A DNA stretch of 64,000 nucleotides, taken from the NCBI GenBank assembly GCA_031555055.1, contig JAVBUT010000004.1, positions 13,741 to 77,740 of the forward strand, in the 5' to 3' direction. Each line of letters starts with the position of its first letter. Positions within the stretch are counted from its first letter, which is position 1. The notes below the pieces were generated by a model. It had not been told where the DNA came from. It searched no databases and worked only from the letters and a program-made list of their open reading frames with translations. Shown here piece after piece: positions 2,312 through 63,281 of this stretch. The translations under genes were made by a program, and so were the position numbers. The DNA comes from Alphaproteobacteria bacterium. Its GTDB lineage: Bacteria > Pseudomonadota > Alphaproteobacteria > Rs-D84.

Positions 2312-3949
2312 ATGACATTGATACAAAACAAATCTTTTCTGTTAAGTTTTTGCAAGACAGCCATTGGTTCATTTTTTGTTTTTCATTCTTCATTTTTTGT
2401 TTGTTCGCCGGCAGATGCCGCTATTCGCGTTGGGAACCAATCCCGCACTAATGCCGCCGCGTACCAGCAACTGAATCTGATGCAACAGGCCGCGTATAAC
2501 CAGGCCGTCGCACCGGCTGGCGTCAATGTTGATGACCTGGCTGTGCGCGTCGCGAACACCGATCTGGCGGAAAAAATCGCACGCGGTGATACTTCGATTG
2601 ATGTTAATAATGCGACATTGGAATCTTGCGCCGCAATTTATCCGACCGGACAATTCGCATGGGATGTGCCGACCGCCGGAACCAAAAAGGGTGGGGCGGC
2701 GACTTGCGTTGCGGTTGTTGAACTGCGCCAGGTCAAAGGAACCCAGGATATAGTTCTGGCGCGCGCAAATTTGGCGGCCGGCGACGCAATGGATTGCAAT
2801 ATCAATAATTTCCCGGAATCAGGATACACAGTTGACGCGGGTAATTTTGTATTTCCGGCGGATCGTGCGCCGACTGTTGACGACGTGATCAGCGTCATGA
2901 ACGACGAACAAAAAAAGAACGCCGGATTTAAAATCGCGGCGGGTACGGTTCTGGGCGGTGTCGGCGGAAATCTGTTAACGAAAAAAGATATAACCACCGG
3001 TAAAAAAGACGCGGGCACCACGGTTGTCGGCGCGCTGACGGGTGCGGCGATCATGGCGGGCAGTTCTTATGCAGGCAAGGTCGGCGGTGATATGATTCTG
3101 TCTTCTGGCGTCAATGCGGCGGCGGGCGCGGCGGTTGGCAATATTGTCGGCGGTGGCGAATCCGTATTGCGTATCGAAGACTGTATTGTGAATGATTCGA
3201 AAACAACATGTCTGTGGGGCGTGATCGAAGAAAGTAAAAAGTTGAACGGTGGCACCGCATACTATAATGTCGGTACCGGGGCGACCGCGGTTTGCAAAAC
3301 CAACGCGGTCGAAAGTTGCGAAAAAACGCGCCTGATCGCGATAAAGTTCGCAAATCCGTCCGACGCGGCCAAAGACAAGTCGCTGGAAGAAGCAATATCT
3401 GAACCGGCGTTTTTCAAAAATATTTCCAAAAGATTTACACTGGATGAACAGCATAATAAAATGACGCCCGGCGGTGAAGAATGGATCGAAATCAAATCCG
3501 CAGGAACCCCCGGTGATCGCACGCCGGCCATGATTTCCGGTATCAGCGACAAGACGTTTGGCCTGAAAATGAAAGACTGGTACAAAATTCGCGGAACAAT
3601 TACCGAAGGCCAACTGGCGGCGCGCAAATCCGACGGCAGCTCTTATAAGCTGGATGACAAGAAAAAATGGAATGTTAACGACTTTTATCCGATGACCGTT
3701 GACGCAACCGACGGCGGCATAATCGACATCAATAACAAGGCACGCATGTCAGGCACGCTGATCGGGGCGGGCGCAGGCGCGGGATTGGGCGCGTTCACCG
3801 CGTACCAGGGCGCGACCGAAGAAATTGACGCGCGATGGGTGTCGTCTGTCCAGGAATACAAAGATTCGTTGCAAAAGGTTTATTGCGGAACCGGCACGCG
3901 TTTTCTGTCGCAATACAACAGTCTGACCGTAATTCCAAATATGCAATAA
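2312..3949 (+). CDS. Hypothetical secreted or membrane protein with Gly/Ala-rich hydrophobic segments
   Basis: 545-aa ORF with a hydrophobic N-terminus (...FFVCSPADAA). Contains Gly-rich stretches (GTVLGGVGGNLL, GAAIMAGSSYAG, LIGAGAGAGLGAF). I recognise no family. Confidence 0.6.
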   Translation: MTLIQNKSFLLSFCKTAIGSFFVFHSSFFVCSPADAAIRVGNQSRTNAAAYQQLNLMQQAAYNQAVAPAGVNVDDLAVRVANTDLAEKIARGDTSIDVNNATLESCAAIYPTGQFAWDVPTAGTKKGGAATCVAVVELRQVKGTQDIVLARANLAAGDAMDCNINNFPESGYTVDAGNFVFPADRAPTVDDVISVMNDEQKKNAGFKIAAGTVLGGVGGNLLTKKDITTGKKDAGTTVVGALTGAAIMAGSSYAGKVGGDMILSSGVNAAAGAAVGNIVGGGESVLRIEDCIVNDSKTTCLWGVIEESKKLNGGTAYYNVGTGATAVCKTNAVESCEKTRLIAIKFANPSDAAKDKSLEEAISEPAFFKNISKRFTLDEQHNKMTPGGEEWIEIKSAGTPGDRTPAMISGISDKTFGLKMKDWYKIRGTITEGQLAARKSDGSSYKLDDKKKWNVNDFYPMTVDATDGGIIDINNKARMSGTLIGAGAGAGLGAFTAYQGATEEIDARWVSSVQEYKDSLQKVYCGTGTRFLSQYNSLTVIPNMQ

Positions 3950-31176: not shown

Positions 31177-31280
31177 TGATAGATTCCGATATTTCTAGGT
31201 GCGCATTTTTGTGCGAGAGAAAATAAAACCCTCCCCGTTTTTTGGCGGTGCAAAAAAACACCCCTCCGTCAGAGGGGAAT

Positions 31281-31301
31281 TTATCTGGTGGCCTTGATCG
31301 G
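31281..31301 (-). repeat. Orphan copy of the tRNA-Leu(CAA) 3' end (oldest)
   Basis: ttatctggtggccttgatcgg matches the acceptor 3' strand plus CCA of the tRNA at 31670. Flanked by the hairpin cacccctccgtcagaggggaa. Confidence 0.75.
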
Positions 31302-31754: not shown

Positions 31755-31826
31755 AGAACAGGAATCAGTTTTAAGTTATCAGAAATCAGTATTATAAAAT
31801 CTGATTCCTGGTTCCTGATTCCTTGT
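31755..31826. repeat. Heptanucleotide-repeat block with internal inversion (caggaat cagtttt ... ctgattc ctggttc ctgattc)
   Basis: 7-nt periodicity readable by eye. The two halves are reverse complements. Lies between the rpmB stop and the tRNA-Leu 5' end. Confidence 0.75.
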
Positions 31827-37805: not shown

Positions 37806-37980
37806 ACCCCCCCCTTGAGCTCAGTTCTAATTACTCCCCCCTTGAGGGGGAGTCGGCGCGCGAGTTTGCGTGCCGGTGGGGGGGGTATAGTTTCAAATTA
37901 TAATTATCCCCCCCCCACCGCATCGCTGCGATAACAGCAGCTCTGCGACTCCCCCTCAAGGGGGGAGTAATTAGACCCCA
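37806..37980. repeat. Inverted pair of G/C-rich palindromic units
   Basis: tctaattactccccccttgagggggagtcg (37826..) and cgactccccctcaaggggggagtaattaga (..37976) are reverse complements. Each half also carries a poly-C/G block, ccggtggggggggtata and tatcccccccccaccg. Same unit as in lgt and the RlmD-like gene. Confidence 0.85.
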
Positions 37981-51291: not shown

Positions 51292-53949
51292 ATGTTTAAG
51301 CCAAACGATATTGTGAAAGTCTTGATTCCGAATGTTGCCAGTTCGGGGTATGACTATCGTTTGAACGAATCTGCGGAAATTGGCGCGTTTGTGCGCGTAT
51401 CCGTCATGAACAGGCCATATGTCGGCGTGATCATCGGCGCCGGCGACAGCGGTCTGGGACCGGAAAAAATCAAGAATGTCCAAGAAGTTATCAAATGGGC
51501 GCCGGGACTGTCGGCCGCGGACATGCTGTGGATTTCAAAAATGTCAGAATGGACGATGATGCCGATGGGCGCGGTTCTGCGCCTGATTGTTAATGTCCCG
51601 GATGCGTTTTTACAGCCAAAACAGGAACAACTGTATTCCGTGGCACTGGGCGAAGATATTCGAATGACCAATGGGCGCCAGTTGGTTCTGGACGCGTTTG
51701 CGTCGAATGATAACGAACCGATGTCCGTGTCGGATATTCAAAATATCGCACATGTCAGCGCTGCGGTGGTTAACACTATGATTCGGGCGGGTGCACTGGC
51801 CGCAGTGGCGACCAGAAATCAGGAATCAGTAATCAGGGATCAGTATAATTATTTCGATACAGGTTCTGTAAAATTAAACGACGAGCAACAGCGTGCCGCG
51901 GATGAGATATCGGCAGGTTTTGGTTCCCCTCTGGAAGAGGGGTGCCCGCAGGGCGGGGTGTCGATTAAGAAATTACCAGAAAATCCTGACTTAAAAGAAC
52001 GTGCAAAAGAATTGCGTAAAGCCGGCAGTCTTCCTGAAGCATTGCTGTGGCCCGAAATAAGCGGAAAAAAGATTAATGGGCTAAATTTTGACCGACAAAA
52101 AGTTATCGGAAATTATATAGTTGATTTCTTTTGCCCAACGAAAAACGTCGTAATAGAAATTGATGATGCGGCGACCCATGATTATAAGGGAAAGTATGAT
52201 GAAAAACGTGATAATTTCTTAAAAAAATTAGGTTTAACAATTATTCGTTTTTCGGCAAAAGAAATTTTAAAGGAAATGAATGAGGTTGTTGAATTTTTAA
52301 AACGACACCCCGCCCTGCGGGCACCCCTCTGCCAGAGGGGAACCGATACGTTCCAGGTTTATGTTCTGGACGGTATAACCGGATCGGGCAAGACCCAGGT
52401 GTATTTTGATTCCGTCTTGCGCGCGTACCAGAATGGAAAATCGGTTTTGCTGATGATGCCGGAAATCGCGCTGACTGCGCAATTCATGCACCGATTTGAA
52501 AAACGTTTCGGCGCCAAGCCGGTTGTATGGCACAGCAATCTGACCGCGGCGCGCCGACGTGAGATTTGGCGCGGTGTGGCGCGCGGCGATATTCGCATTA
52601 TTGTCGGAACGCGCAGTGCACTGTTTCTGCCGTGGCAGAATCTGGGTCTGGTTGTTGTTGATGAAGAACATGATGGATCGTACAAACAGGAAGACATGGG
52701 AAATTACCATGCGCGCGACATGGCGATACTGCGCGCGGCGATCGCAGGTTTTCCGATAGTGCTGGCCAGTGCGACGCCGTCGGCGGAAACGATGAAAAAT
52801 ATTCATGCGGGCAAATATAAGTGTCTGCGTCTGACTTCGCGTTTTGGTGGCGCGACATTGCCGCACGTCGAAACAATCGACATGCGCAAAGAGAAATGTG
52901 AGGAGTATAAATTGTCGCATCTCACCCCCACAGGGGGGCAGACGTGCCTCGGGCATTTGTCGCCAACATTATGCGATGCGATTGCGGAAACGCTGCATGA
53001 TAAAAAACAGGTCATGCTGTTTATAAATCGTCGCGGATTCGCGCCGATCGTGCAATGCAAAAAATGCGGATGGGCCGCGCAATGCCCGGACTGCAGTGTG
53101 GGCATGGTTTATCATAAAGGAATCAGAAACCAGGAACCAGGAACCAGTAAATTATTATGCCATATCTGTGGACATACTGAACCGTTGCCGAAAAAATGTC
53201 CGGACTGTGGCGGTGAAATTTCAACGCGCGGAATGGGTCTGGAAAAAATCCAGGAAGAAGTGAACGCAAAATTTCCACATGCGAAAACGGCGTTGGTGTC
53301 ATCTGACACCATGATGTCGCGCCAGGCGTTGGAACGGCTGGTGTCGCAGATGGAATCCGGTGAAATAGACATTGTCATCGGGACCCAAATTCTGGCCAAG
53401 GGACACCACTTTCCGAATCTGACGCTGGTCGGTGTCGTTGACGCGGACATGGGGCTGTTCGGATCGGATTTTCGTGCGGGTGAACATACGTTCCAACAAT
53501 TGTTCCAGGTTGCCGGCCGTGCCGGACGCGGCGAACATCATGGGCGCGTCATGCTGCAGACGTATCAGCCGGAACACCCGGTTATGCGCGCGATATGCGC
53601 AGGTGACCGCGACACGTTTATGGCGAATGATATGGAATCGCGTCGGATTGCAAAAATGCCGCCGTACGGAAACCTGATCGCACTGATCGTCGAATGCGAA
53701 AAAGAAAACATCTTGCAGGAATATTGCAAAAATCTGTCGGCGGTGGCGCCCGTGCTGGCTGGTGGCAAAATCATGGGGCCGATCATGGCCCAGCTGTACC
53801 AGGTCAGAAACTGGTATCGAATGCGGTTTTTGGTGTCGGGGGACGAACGCGCAAATCTGCAGCCGGTCGTGCGCGCGTGGATCGCCAAGATAAAGCAGCC
53901 CGCCAGCGTGCGCGTAAAGATCGATGTGGCGCCGCAAAGCTTTATGTGA
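51292..53949 (+). CDS. priA: Primosomal replication-restart helicase PriA carrying in-frame insertions
   Basis: Start MFKPNDIVKVLIP (ATG 51292). LNDEQQRAADEI, Walker A LDGITGSGKTQVY, DEEHDGSYKQ, the zinc-binding CKKCGW..CPDC...CHICGH...CPDCGG, and C-terminal blocks. Without the 141-aa insert the length (about 744 aa) is typical for PriA. Confidence 0.92.
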   Translation: MFKPNDIVKVLIPNVASSGYDYRLNESAEIGAFVRVSVMNRPYVGVIIGAGDSGLGPEKIKNVQEVIKWAPGLSAADMLWISKMSEWTMMPMGAVLRLIVNVPDAFLQPKQEQLYSVALGEDIRMTNGRQLVLDAFASNDNEPMSVSDIQNIAHVSAAVVNTMIRAGALAAVATRNQESVIRDQYNYFDTGSVKLNDEQQRAADEISAGFGSPLEEGCPQGGVSIKKLPENPDLKERAKELRKAGSLPEALLWPEISGKKINGLNFDRQKVIGNYIVDFFCPTKNVVIEIDDAATHDYKGKYDEKRDNFLKKLGLTIIRFSAKEILKEMNEVVEFLKRHPALRAPLCQRGTDTFQVYVLDGITGSGKTQVYFDSVLRAYQNGKSVLLMMPEIALTAQFMHRFEKRFGAKPVVWHSNLTAARRREIWRGVARGDIRIIVGTRSALFLPWQNLGLVVVDEEHDGSYKQEDMGNYHARDMAILRAAIAGFPIVLASATPSAETMKNIHAGKYKCLRLTSRFGGATLPHVETIDMRKEKCEEYKLSHLTPTGGQTCLGHLSPTLCDAIAETLHDKKQVMLFINRRGFAPIVQCKKCGWAAQCPDCSVGMVYHKGIRNQEPGTSKLLCHICGHTEPLPKKCPDCGGEISTRGMGLEKIQEEVNAKFPHAKTALVSSDTMMSRQALERLVSQMESGEIDIVIGTQILAKGHHFPNLTLVGVVDADMGLFGSDFRAGEHTFQQLFQVAGRAGRGEHHGRVMLQTYQPEHPVMRAICAGDRDTFMANDMESRRIAKMPPYGNLIALIVECEKENILQEYCKNLSAVAPVLAGGKIMGPIMAQLYQVRNWYRMRFLVSGDERANLQPVVRAWIAKIKQPASVRVKIDVAPQSFM
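51813..51847 (+). repeat. Heptanucleotide array in the priA coding sequence (cagaaat caggaat cagtaat cagggat cagtata)
   Basis: 7-nt periodicity, encoding ...RNQESVIRDQY... Confidence 0.7.
51922..52344 (+). mobile_element. 423-bp DUF559 (Vsr-like endonuclease) cassette with 42-bp terminal inverted repeats, inserted in-frame in priA
   Basis: The left end ggttcccctctggaagaggggtgcccgcagggcggggtgtcg (51922..51963) matches the reverse complement of the right end (52303..52344) at 41/42 positions. 423 = 141 codons, and the element starts on a codon boundary. The interior encodes ...AKELRKAGSLPEALLWPEISGKKINGLNFDRQKVIGNYIVDFFCPTKNVVIEIDDAATHDYKGKYDEKRDNFLKKLGLTIIRFSAKEI..., matching the DUF559 pattern. 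Confidence 0.85.
52921..52940 (+). repeat. Mini G/C palindrome inside the priA coding sequence
   Basis: ctcaccccc-aca-ggggggca resembles the ctcacccc...gggggg core of the unit in lgt. It encodes ...HLTPTGGQT... in a region that looks like an extra loop. Confidence 0.5.
53124..53151 (+). repeat. Heptanucleotide array in the priA zinc-finger region (cagaaac caggaac caggaac cagtaaa)
   Basis: Encodes GIRNQEPGTS between the two Cys pairs. The E. coli PriA sequence I recall is about 7 aa shorter here. Confidence 0.65.
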
Positions 53950-62267: not shown

Positions 62268-63281
62268 ATGAAACAATGTCCATTATTTAACAAGTGTGGC
62301 GGATGCAGATTCGATTTTTCGTCCGATGATTATCGCGAATCAAAATTAAAATTATTGCATGGTTTGCCGATTACAAATGATCCGGTTTGGATTGATACTG
62401 GCAATCGCCGGCGCGGCGACTTTGCGTTCTGTGACGGCGTGTTCGGATTCTTTGAACGCGGCACCAAGAATGTGATTCCGGTTCGAAATTGCCCGGCCAT
62501 GACCGATGCGGTTAATAAAATATTGCCGAATGTCGCCACTATGCCGTGGACCGGCGCCGGCAGCGTTTTGATCACGGAATGCGCGAACGGAATCGATATT
62601 GCGGTGACGTCCGCCGTGCCGTATTTTACATCCGAATTTAAAAAGGCCGCGGATAAATCATCGGCGATACGCATAACATGGAATGGTAAAGTTGTATCAC
62701 AAACCGTGGCGCCAATCATCAGGTTTGGCGACGTAATCGTACCGTATCCAGCGAACGCGTTTCTGCAGCCGAGTGTTGCAGGTGAAAACGCATTGCGAGA
62801 TTTGGTTGTCTGTGCTGCAACTATACCCCCCACCGACGCACGAAACAGTGCCGTCGACTCCCCCGCAGGGGGGGAGTTTATTCATAAGAAAAAAATTGCG
62901 GATTTGTTTTGCGGTCTGGGCGCATTTACGTTTGCATTAAATGCGGATGGTTTTGATATTGATGTGGGTGACAGTGCGTCTGTCGCACGTCCGGGAATGT
63001 TTACCGTGCGCGATTTATTCAAGAAACCGCTGATGGTTCAGAATTTAAAGAAATACGATTGCGTTGTTATGGACCCGCCGCGCGCGGGTGCAATGGAACA
63101 AAGCAAAGAATTGGCAAAATCAGATGTTCCGCGCATTGTGTATGTATCGTGCAATGCGGACACTTTTATGCGCGATTTGGAAATCTTGAAACGTGGCGGA
63201 TATCGCATGACTGCATTGACCCCGGTGGATCAGTTCGTTGGCACAGCGCACTGGGAACTGGTCGGTGTGTTTGAAAAATAA
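62268..63281 (+). CDS. RNA (uracil-5)-methyltransferase, RlmD/TrmA family, without TRAM domain
   Basis: N-terminal CPLFNKCGGCRF Fe-S cluster motif, AdoMet motif DLFCGLGAFT, VVMDPPRAG and the catalytic YVSCNADTFMRDL. Carries an in-frame G/C palindromic unit just before motif I. Confidence 0.82.
   Translation: MKQCPLFNKCGGCRFDFSSDDYRESKLKLLHGLPITNDPVWIDTGNRRRGDFAFCDGVFGFFERGTKNVIPVRNCPAMTDAVNKILPNVATMPWTGAGSVLITECANGIDIAVTSAVPYFTSEFKKAADKSSAIRITWNGKVVSQTVAPIIRFGDVIVPYPANAFLQPSVAGENALRDLVVCAATIPPTDARNSAVDSPAGGEFIHKKKIADLFCGLGAFTFALNADGFDIDVGDSASVARPGMFTVRDLFKKPLMVQNLKKYDCVVMDPPRAGAMEQSKELAKSDVPRIVYVSCNADTFMRDLEILKRGGYRMTALTPVDQFVGTAHWELVGVFEK
62822..62880 (+). repeat. G/C-rich palindromic unit inserted in-frame in the methyltransferase gene
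   Basis: tataccccccaccgacgcacgaaacagtgccgtcgactcccccgcagggggggagttta aligns with 37904..37976 (tatcccccccccaccgcatcg...gcgactccccctcaaggggggagtaatta). Confidence 0.8.

Follow-up and report, generated by a model that had tools for sequence, protein, structure and literature searches.

What is a 423-bp cassette with a nuclease gene and inverted ends doing in the middle of the essential helicase gene priA? The question is raised by the 64-kb stretch of DNA analysed here (contig JAVBUT010000004.1, 64,000 nucleotides; hereafter the window), in which PriA is read through a segment of 141 additional residues. An original prediction, made from the sequence alone, described this segment as a mobile or formerly mobile endonuclease cassette of the DUF559 family. 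In our assessment, the priA segment is probably a copy of a minimal selfish element, in which a gene for a DUF559 nuclease of ~130 aa lies between inverted ~42-nt units of two hairpins each, and the best reading of its position is that such an element is tolerated in the PriA linker before Walker A.

Results

The cassette is an insertion that preserves the priA frame

The two ends of the cassette (51922-51963, and 52303-52344 on the minus strand) match at 41 of 42 positions, the lone mismatch lying in a hairpin loop; a looser inverted repeat of 63 nt at 87% reaches slightly past them. The left-end 42 nt (GGTTCCCCTCTGGAAGAGGGGTGCCCGCAGGGCGGGGTGTCG) occur once more in the window, where dinucleotide-preserving shuffles give an expectation of 0. 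Folded as single-stranded DNA, both ends form two hairpins on either strand (-12.1 to -12.4 kcal/mol, z -3.2 to -4.4), namely CCCCTCT-GGA/GGC-AGAGGGG (outer) and CCC-GCA-GGG (inner), as had been proposed. Also in agreement with the original prediction, the insert starts on a codon boundary, 630 nt (210 codons) past the priA ATG at 51292, and comprises 141 stop-free codons; a single open reading frame (ORF) crosses it and continues to 53949. The cassette peptide starts with GSPLEE and ends with CQRGT, the next residue being D. Comparison with solved PriA structures places the insertion point between '...LNDEQQRAADEISAGF' and 'DTFQVYVLDGITGSGKT', directly before the E. coli PriA stretch 'AADTFSAWLLAGVTGSGKT', i.e. 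at the junction of winged-helix domain and helicase lobe 1, ~12 codons before Walker A, which confirms the predicted location. The PriA domains around the insert (3'BD, DEAD/ResIII, Cys-rich region, Helicase_C and PriA_C) were all found by Pfam. GC content is 32.7% in the cassette interior, 74-76% in the two ends and 52.6% in the remaining priA.

When 5.8 billion proteins were searched with a PriA query from which the insert had been deleted, the window's own protein and 119 orthologues from alphaproteobacterial and 'Rickettsiales' metagenome-assembled genomes (MAGs) were listed (68-75% identity, 717-774 aa). A DUF559 domain is present in none of these 119 listed orthologues, and an alignment of 13 sequences shows a short variable linker (AADEIxxHIxxxFSVxLLDG) where the window PriA has the 141 residues; an ancestral version of the domain, free of terminal inverted repeats, was not seen among them. 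Because the orthologues lack the segment, its base composition is foreign and its ends are identical at 41 of 42 positions, the cassette is an insertion in priA and not an old PriA domain. A CAGGTTT repeat around the insert was considered as a target-site duplication and rejected as a chance match, its copies lying in different frames and at asymmetric distances.

Two trivial origins of this arrangement can be judged at this point. The source is apparently a MAG of an uncultured alphaproteobacterium, and a repeat might have been misplaced in its assembly. However, the flanks are colinear halves of one priA, the frame is exact, and analogous in-frame cassettes were found in more than 30 independent assemblies, which makes an artefact extremely unlikely. 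Alternatively, the inverted repeats might bound a programmed invertible segment, since a survey found predicted programmed inversions to be enriched in DUF559, endonuclease-domain proteins and restriction-modification genes (PMC9881135). Yet every frame of the reverse-complemented cassette contains stops (9, 2 and 5), so that inversion would truncate PriA; moreover, that survey scored inverted repeats only, and terminal units carried family-wide account for the enrichment without inversion. We therefore see hardly any room for this explanation.

The insert is predicted to encode an intact nuclease

The sole domain in the cassette is Pfam DUF559 (PF04480), which was matched with 98.6 bits (cut-off 20.6; E=2.4e-28) in a hidden Markov model search, bearing out the DUF559/Vsr-like assignment made beforehand. 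The Neisseria DUF559 structure 3HRL was matched by sequence with E=8e-18. An AlphaFold model of the insert alone, based on an alignment of 40 homologues, had a mean predicted local distance difference test (pLDDT) score of 80, and values below 50 were obtained for the terminal-repeat residues 4-14 and 138-141. The terminal-unit peptides are thus predicted to be disordered and would serve as linkers. Foldseek aligned the model to 3HRL (template modelling (TM) score 0.83, root-mean-square deviation 2.4 A, 94 columns) and to the catalytic domain of the homing endonuclease I-Bth0305I (3R3P; probability 1.0, TM 0.70, 19% identity), while E. coli Vsr was matched more weakly; grouping of DUF559 with Vsr has been published (PMC3424549). 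All 27 columns without variation in the family alignment of 40 sequences are matched by the priA copy, among them E79, D82, H86, D93 and R96, and the conserved acidic/His set E79, D81/D82, H86 and D87 is present within the invariant columns. Judged by sequence and model, the priA insert appears to encode an intact DUF559 nuclease with fold and residues kept and activity predicted. Since the length is a multiple of three, the nuclease frame is the priA frame and the units are stop-free, the cassette should be translated as an extra domain, and PriA would be made with a nuclease on flexible tethers.

Several Toxoplasma and Tetrahymena mitochondrial ribosome proteins also resemble the DUF559 model in Foldseek (probability up to 1.0), in keeping with the DUF559-like folds reported for proteins of apicomplexans (bioRxiv 10.1101/2023.06.05.543710).

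Two-hairpin terminal units accompany the DUF559 family

The closest DUF559 homologues of the insert are 49-71% identical to it, and in 74 of the 120 closest ones the right-unit peptide forms the C-terminus. Free-standing homologues from Gammaproteobacteria, Desulfobacterota, Planctomycetota and Firmicutes end in HPALRAPLQRRG or HPALTGTPPEEGN, i.e. the right unit read in two frames, and some start with SPPLEGCPQGGVV, the left unit; the peptide signature HPALRAPL..G terminates most free-standing family members. In Balneatrix alpica, the left unit lies just 5' of the ATG and the right unit is the 3' end of the ORF. Eighty metagenomic DUF559 loci were fetched by conserved protein peptides alone, not by their DNA ends. 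A complete left unit was present at 60 of them, a complete right unit likewise at 60 and both at 48, whereas an outer hairpin on at least one side was detected at 77 of the 80 loci, which represent several phyla. An exhaustive search of 1.84 billion cluster representatives (50% identity) returned 17,131 DUF559 matches at E<=1e-3 and 3,654 at E<=1e-10; the family to which the priA cassette belongs numbers thousands of representatives and spans many phyla.

The consensus unit reads (A)ATT-CCCCTCC-N3-4-GGAGGGG-T-[G-stem-GNA-stem-C]-GGGGTG-GT, to which the left terminal unit in priA conforms. Across 282 distinct units the sequence of the outer hairpin is constant, in part by construction, since the search pattern fixed 5 of its 7 pairs. 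The inner hairpin is conserved in shape, not sequence: a stem of at least 3 bp is formed in 254 of the 282 units as compared to 24% of shuffles, 63 different stems occur, Watson-Crick pairs outnumber G-T pairs by 964 to 8, and the loops are mostly GAA, GCA, GTA or GGA (GNA). In a formal covariation count on 54 units of equal length, 99% of the cells of inner pairs were paired and three of the four pairs had changed on both sides; the covariation score was 0.207, whereas shuffles gave 0.083 (none of 500 reached the observed value) and slid partners did not exceed 0.039. In DNA, minihairpins of the C-GNA-G type have exceptional stability. From this stability and the scarcity of G-T pairs, we infer that the unit structure forms in DNA rather than RNA. 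Units are stop-free in all six frames in 48% of cases versus 16% of shuffles.

The structure of the units bears on the idea that the segment is spliced out as intein, intron or otherwise before the protein matures and that PriA never carries it. The two ends could indeed pair in RNA, and nucleases of this fold are known in group I introns and beside split inteins (PMC2677866, PMC3239194). However, no Rfam intron or other RNA family was found for the region at E up to 10, and the whole window yielded only tRNAs and noise at gathering scores. The inner stems, nearly devoid of G-T pairs and closed by GNA triloops, point to a DNA structure. In line with the absence of intein motifs claimed earlier, the cassette has no intein/Hint Pfam domain and no junction nucleophiles (it starts with GSP and ends with RGT, followed by D), and the junction residues vary among hosts. 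Splicing is thus very unlikely.

Cassettes reside in frame in many host proteins

Among GTDB genomes, eight close relatives of the cassette were found (57-66% identical), all in rumen or gut alphaproteobacterial MAGs and all read through inside queA. The loop sites used number two or three; in-frame solo units (SPLARGVxGETRRGVA) often accompany the cassettes, and one queA carries two cassettes. QueA is also the host of the best full-length match to the priA cassette (65%), which has near-identical end peptides (GSPPLEGCPQGGV...HPALQAPLHRRGT). In all loci taken together, the frame stays open for at least 40 codons past the cassette in 57 of 96 DUF559 matches, and ~57 of the best 150 cluster representatives measure at least 250 aa with the DUF559 domain internal. 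Hosts assigned by Pfam comprise HsdR, HsdS, type ISP, Eco57I/MmeI-like and N6_N4 methyltransferases, fumarase C and QueA, and TsaB/YeaZ is another in-frame host. In type I HsdR, nine loci carry the cassette at one site just upstream of helicase motif I. In-frame residence is common for the DUF559 cassette family and not special to helicases or priA. The original prediction was right about the in-frame insertion into priA, but the case is not singular, as QueA, TsaB, fumarase and HsdR/HsdS are invaded as well.

In free-standing copies an ATG follows GGGGTGGT at a distance of 2-5 nt, so that their ribosome-binding site seems to be provided by the inner end of the left unit. No ATG is present at this position in embedded copies, that in priA among them; lacking a start codon of their own, they would depend on translation of the host gene.

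Up to two cassettes and several solo units per gene, spread over three loop sites, are seen in queA of six loci (L052, L054, L055, L056, L058 and L059), and a conserved 'CFGFQ' spacer accompanies the cassette in queA of rumen and gut alphaproteobacterial MAGs. Restriction-modification genes are the predominant hosts of cassettes.

Embedded cassettes are under selection and vary in presence

For queA-embedded cassettes, the median ratio of nonsynonymous to synonymous divergence (dN/dS) is 0.11 (82 pairs), and one orthologous pair shows dN 0 at dS 0.30, which indicates that the domain is kept intact while embedded. Strong purifying selection of this kind is also what one would expect if the insert were a domesticated PriA domain, for instance a nuclease acting at stalled forks, that is kept for the benefit of the cell. 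The intact ORF and the complete set of family-invariant residues are compatible with this possibility, and PriA, which works on branched DNA, would be a plausible place for a structure-specific nuclease. However, the insert is missing from all 119 listed PriA orthologues, and the same cassette is found in unrelated enzymes (QueA, TsaB, fumarase) for which a nuclease would be functionally meaningless. In addition, its composition has not been ameliorated and its ends are nearly identical, which points to a recent, selfish insertion. We consider domestication unlikely.

The queA genes of loci L055 and L056 share 91-93% nucleotide identity but differ in where the cassette lies, one having it at site 1 and the other at site 3. 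The block found at these sites consists of the cassette, the conserved spacer and a further left-type unit and is 88% identical between the two, while the 'empty' sites hold short unit-like remnants; in queA of L059 both sites are filled. This polymorphism reflects cassettes either gained or lost over periods comparable to those of species divergence. Together with the occupation of several different host sites by cassettes with the same ends, it supports the earlier view of a mobile, or formerly mobile, endonuclease cassette.

No target-site duplication was detected: flanking direct repeats were no longer than in shuffled pairings for the 74 of 75 cassettes and doublets that had enough flank, in a test that a 2-nt duplication hidden in the ATT/AAT ends would escape. 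The left unit is often repeated directly on the flanks of queA cassettes. A tblastn search of plasmids for annotated relatives returned only distant DUF559 genes (<=41% identity) and no mobile-element annotation.

Units also occur without the nuclease gene

Apart from cassettes, the unit is found singly, in alternating arrays and in convergent pairs (doublets) of 89-168 bp, of which the analysed loci contain 13. Doublets in Balneatrix keep a remnant of the ORF start. A pattern scan of viral contigs gave 48 stretches with the unit, only one of them with the nuclease. Within the window, a second type of unit exists, a sibling with the outer hairpin TAATTA-CTCCCCCC..GGGGGAG, a variable inner hairpin and a subsequent G run (GGTGGGGGGGG). 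It forms a doublet and a solo unit (Table 1), for which the window holds no cognate nuclease gene; the only DUF559 gene in the window is that of the priA cassette.

These observations are the basis of the main rival to a self-moving cassette, according to which the units are repeats similar to repetitive extragenic palindromic (REP) sequences or bacterial interspersed mosaic elements (BIMEs). They would be moved by another enzyme or by host processes, with DUF559 as a passenger or a unit-processing or repair nuclease. The excess of unit stretches over cassettes in viral contigs, the alternating array around a single DUF559 gene in Balneatrix, the sibling-type units without a nuclease gene, and the fact that neither a target-site duplication nor transposase-like chemistry was seen all fit this rival. 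What speaks against it is the presence of units at 77 of 80 loci that were picked by protein in several phyla. Furthermore, units, nuclease and downstream spacer shift jointly between the queA sites, and doublets retain remnants of the nuclease ORF start, as expected of deletion derivatives. On balance, we rate movement of the repeats by something else as rather unlikely.

The hairpin at 31258-31278, which had been put forward as a sign of a dispersed family, exists and has the flanks of an outer hairpin, but it is only half a unit: the inner hairpin is missing, and it abuts a repeat of the tRNA-Leu 3' end. Dispersal in the window is better evidenced by the three sibling-type units (37826-37975 and ~62826-62880). 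The 3' end of tRNA-Leu(CAA) (TCTGGTGGCCTTGATCGG) is present in three copies, at 31284, 31469 and 31668, one of which is adjoined by the half unit, while the other two are each preceded by a different terminator-like hairpin; the copies look like the product of serial integrations at tRNA-Leu. The heptamers GGAAYCA/GAATCAG recur beside tRNA-Leu (31801-31821, minus strand) and are arranged in tandem in priA at 51813-51840 and 53120-53147, where they encode RNQE-containing peptides that are not in the orthologues.

A second small in-frame insert in priA, 45 nt in length (SHLTPTGGQTCLGHL), lies at 52912-52963 and contains two small hairpins, with TTGTCGC as a 7-nt direct repeat on its flanks. The PriA orthologue P0127 (L143, ~1380-1475) has, at the same codon and likewise following YKL, an in-frame mini-element with two CCCCTCC..GGAGGGG hairpins (PPPLEGASRESAMGEANADTPLQGRGEL). 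In locus L135 (~2600-3000), 3' of the cassette in an Eco57I-like methyltransferase, ~11 outer hairpins alone are arranged in tandem and read as SPPLEEQEVV(I/T).

Table 1. Coordinates of the priA cassette and of other units in the window, with the restriction-modification loci that carry cassettes.
Feature	Position	Strand	Description
Host gene priA	51292..53949	+	885 codons including insert; supported by ORF, Pfam, orthologues, and E. coli and Klebsiella PriA structures
Inserted cassette	51922..52344	+	423 bp, in frame, without own start or stop; missing from listed orthologues
Left terminal unit	51922..51963	+	GGTT, outer hairpin 51926-51942 (CCCCTCT GGA AGAGGGG), T
Left terminal unit, continued	51944-51954	+	Inner hairpin (G CCC GCA GGG C), then GGGGTG TCG; translated GSPLEEGCPQGGVS
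DUF559 / Vsr-like nuclease domain	51991..52296	+	Insert residues 24-125; predicted from Pfam, 3HRL and fold model
Catalytic-type motif E79-I-D-D-A-A-T-H86-D87	52156-52182	+	
Right terminal unit	52303..52344	-	Inner hairpin 52312-52322, outer hairpin 52324-52340; + strand translation RHPALRAPLCQRGT
Half unit	31259..31281	-	Outer hairpin 31261-31277 with AATT and TG flanks, then T7; terminator-like
Sibling-type doublet	37826..37975		150 bp, perfect 30-nt inverted termini; upstream of tRNA-Ala (38050)
Solo unit of sibling type	~62826..62880	-	Same architecture
hsdR loci with cassette			L076, L080, L086, L091, L092, L098, L102, L124, L125
hsdS loci with cassette in central conserved region			L061, L081, L103, L115

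Discussion

A model for movement and persistence of the cassette

How might a ~130-aa nuclease gene between two hairpin units persist in an essential gene? Insertions that break priA would be purged by selection, while an in-frame copy could be tolerated. The terminal units may act as DNA hairpins or cruciforms, the outer hairpin being recognised by sequence and the inner one by shape. The nuclease would nick or cut at or near the units or vacant sites, and host recombination or repair might then copy the cassette. We infer that the family moves in this homing-like manner and not by cut-and-paste transposition. Copying is favoured by the fold of Vsr-like homing endonucleases, by the lack of an observed target-site duplication and by the direct left-unit copies that flank queA cassettes. 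If a solo unit were broken, such direct copies would offer homology to either flank of the break. The ~100-bp doublets and the solo units could arise through internal deletion of cassettes and unit-to-unit recombination.

In its widest form, this model would make the cassettes widespread, unrecognised minimal autonomous elements of ~430 bp that live habitually in host proteins. Their ends would consist of an invariant hairpin and a covarying hairpin with GNA loop, they would be read through unspliced, and they would leave solo and doublet derivatives resembling Rickettsia palindromic elements (RPEs), while the nuclease would act on the extruded hairpin or cruciform and induce copying by a nick. 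We put this forward tentatively, as a possibility to which we give somewhat less than even weight.

Several points weigh against the selfish-element interpretation. Nuclease activity, target and strand-transfer chemistry are putative throughout the family, and a hydrolytic nuclease of ~130 aa cannot join DNA alone. With one DUF559 gene in the window, activity of the element in the source organism is conjectural. No PriA relative of more than 75% identity was among the matches listed from the 5.8 billion proteins, which limits how closely the empty site can be placed and the insertion dated. Synonymous divergence between the priA copy and its relatives is saturated, so that selection on this copy is not measurable, and the purifying selection on embedded copies elsewhere would equally fit a domesticated domain or simply the need for the insert to fold harmlessly within its host protein. 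Finally, differential loss from a two-cassette ancestor, instead of gain, could account for the queA polymorphism.

Relation to known elements

By analogy, the cassettes appear to be related to Vsr-like homing endonucleases, to REP sequences and miniature inverted-repeat transposable elements (MITEs), and to RPEs. RPEs, reportedly described by Ogata et al. in 2000, are said to be palindromic selfish DNA inserted in frame in protein genes, including essential ones, and to be translated. To our knowledge, they encode no protein and have no known autonomous partner. The cassette, the solo units and the doublets would resemble them in architecture, as in-frame palindromic insertions that are missing from orthologues; insertions of this type are the priA cassette, the QueA solo units and the mini-element in the PriA orthologue. 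The cassette differs in that it carries a nuclease gene. Placing it near RPEs and free-standing homing endonucleases, as was done at the outset, appears apt.

REP/REPIN sequences with their REP-associated tyrosine transposases (RAYTs), reportedly treated by Nunvar in 2010 and by Bertels and Rainey in 2011, are said to consist of dispersed hairpin units, found alone, as inverted pairs or within alternating arrays. The RAYT protein is a transposase of the HUH/Y1 type that acts on single strands, and REPs are extragenic. The cassette family shares the dispersed hairpin units, inverted doublets and arrays as well as the gene between two inverted units. However, its protein is a predicted hydrolytic nuclease of restriction fold, not an HUH/Y1 enzyme, and its units are often intragenic and in frame. 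With insertion sequences (IS) and MITEs, the family has in common terminal inverted repeats (41 of 42 positions in priA, and family-wide), a putatively autonomous form and internally deleted derivatives such as the 13 doublets of 89-168 bp. Unlike these, it has neither a DDE nor a serine/tyrosine transposase and no detectable target-site duplication, and a length of ~430 bp is far below that of any IS. Inteins are likewise in-frame elements in essential genes that may carry an endonuclease, but the cassette is devoid of splicing blocks and junction nucleophiles and most likely stays in the protein.

Vsr-like homing endonucleases of the EDxHD type were described in group I introns, beside split inteins and as ORFs that split genes, and stand-alone inserts without intron or intein have been reported for this family as well ('fractured genes' of Dassa et al. 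2009, PMC2677866; Taylor et al. 2011, PMC3239194). The likeness lies in the nuclease fold (TM 0.70), the acidic-His motif and the nature of selfish genes invading conserved host genes. The EDxHD enzymes are larger and multidomain, however, and they reside in introns or split inteins or break the host into two ORFs, whereas the priA cassette is associated with neither intron nor intein, and its host ORF is continuous and read through without splicing. Inverted units of two hairpins do not bound them, and neither solo units nor doublets have been reported as their derivatives. Within DUF559 itself, N. gonorrhoeae NGO0050 (PDB 3HRL) and E. coli YcjD share Pfam family and fold with the insert; the conserved N-terminal helix region LPxNPxLKxRAKELRK is missing from 3HRL, and the published entries of both proteins make no mention of terminal repeats. 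In the open-access literature, no published account of DUF559 genes with structured inverted units, miniature derivatives and in-frame residence was found.

Implications

The priA cassette is apparently a clean example of an undescribed, widespread minimal nuclease element that lives inside proteins. If this is true, such cassettes would be among the smallest self-contained mobile elements known and would provide a nuclease-bearing 'parent' for in-frame palindromic insertions, a class that has been puzzling ever since RPEs were described. It would also give a testable role to DUF559, a large domain of unknown function, and explain the enrichment of DUF559 and restriction-modification genes among 'predicted programmed inversions', as such predictions may be confounded by terminal repeats. 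The essential enzymes PriA, QueA, TsaB and fumarase would then tolerate the insertion of a 140-residue domain at defined loops, which is useful for protein engineering and for understanding the origins of domain architectures. For annotation, it would mean that proteins like the window PriA are chimeras of host gene and parasite.

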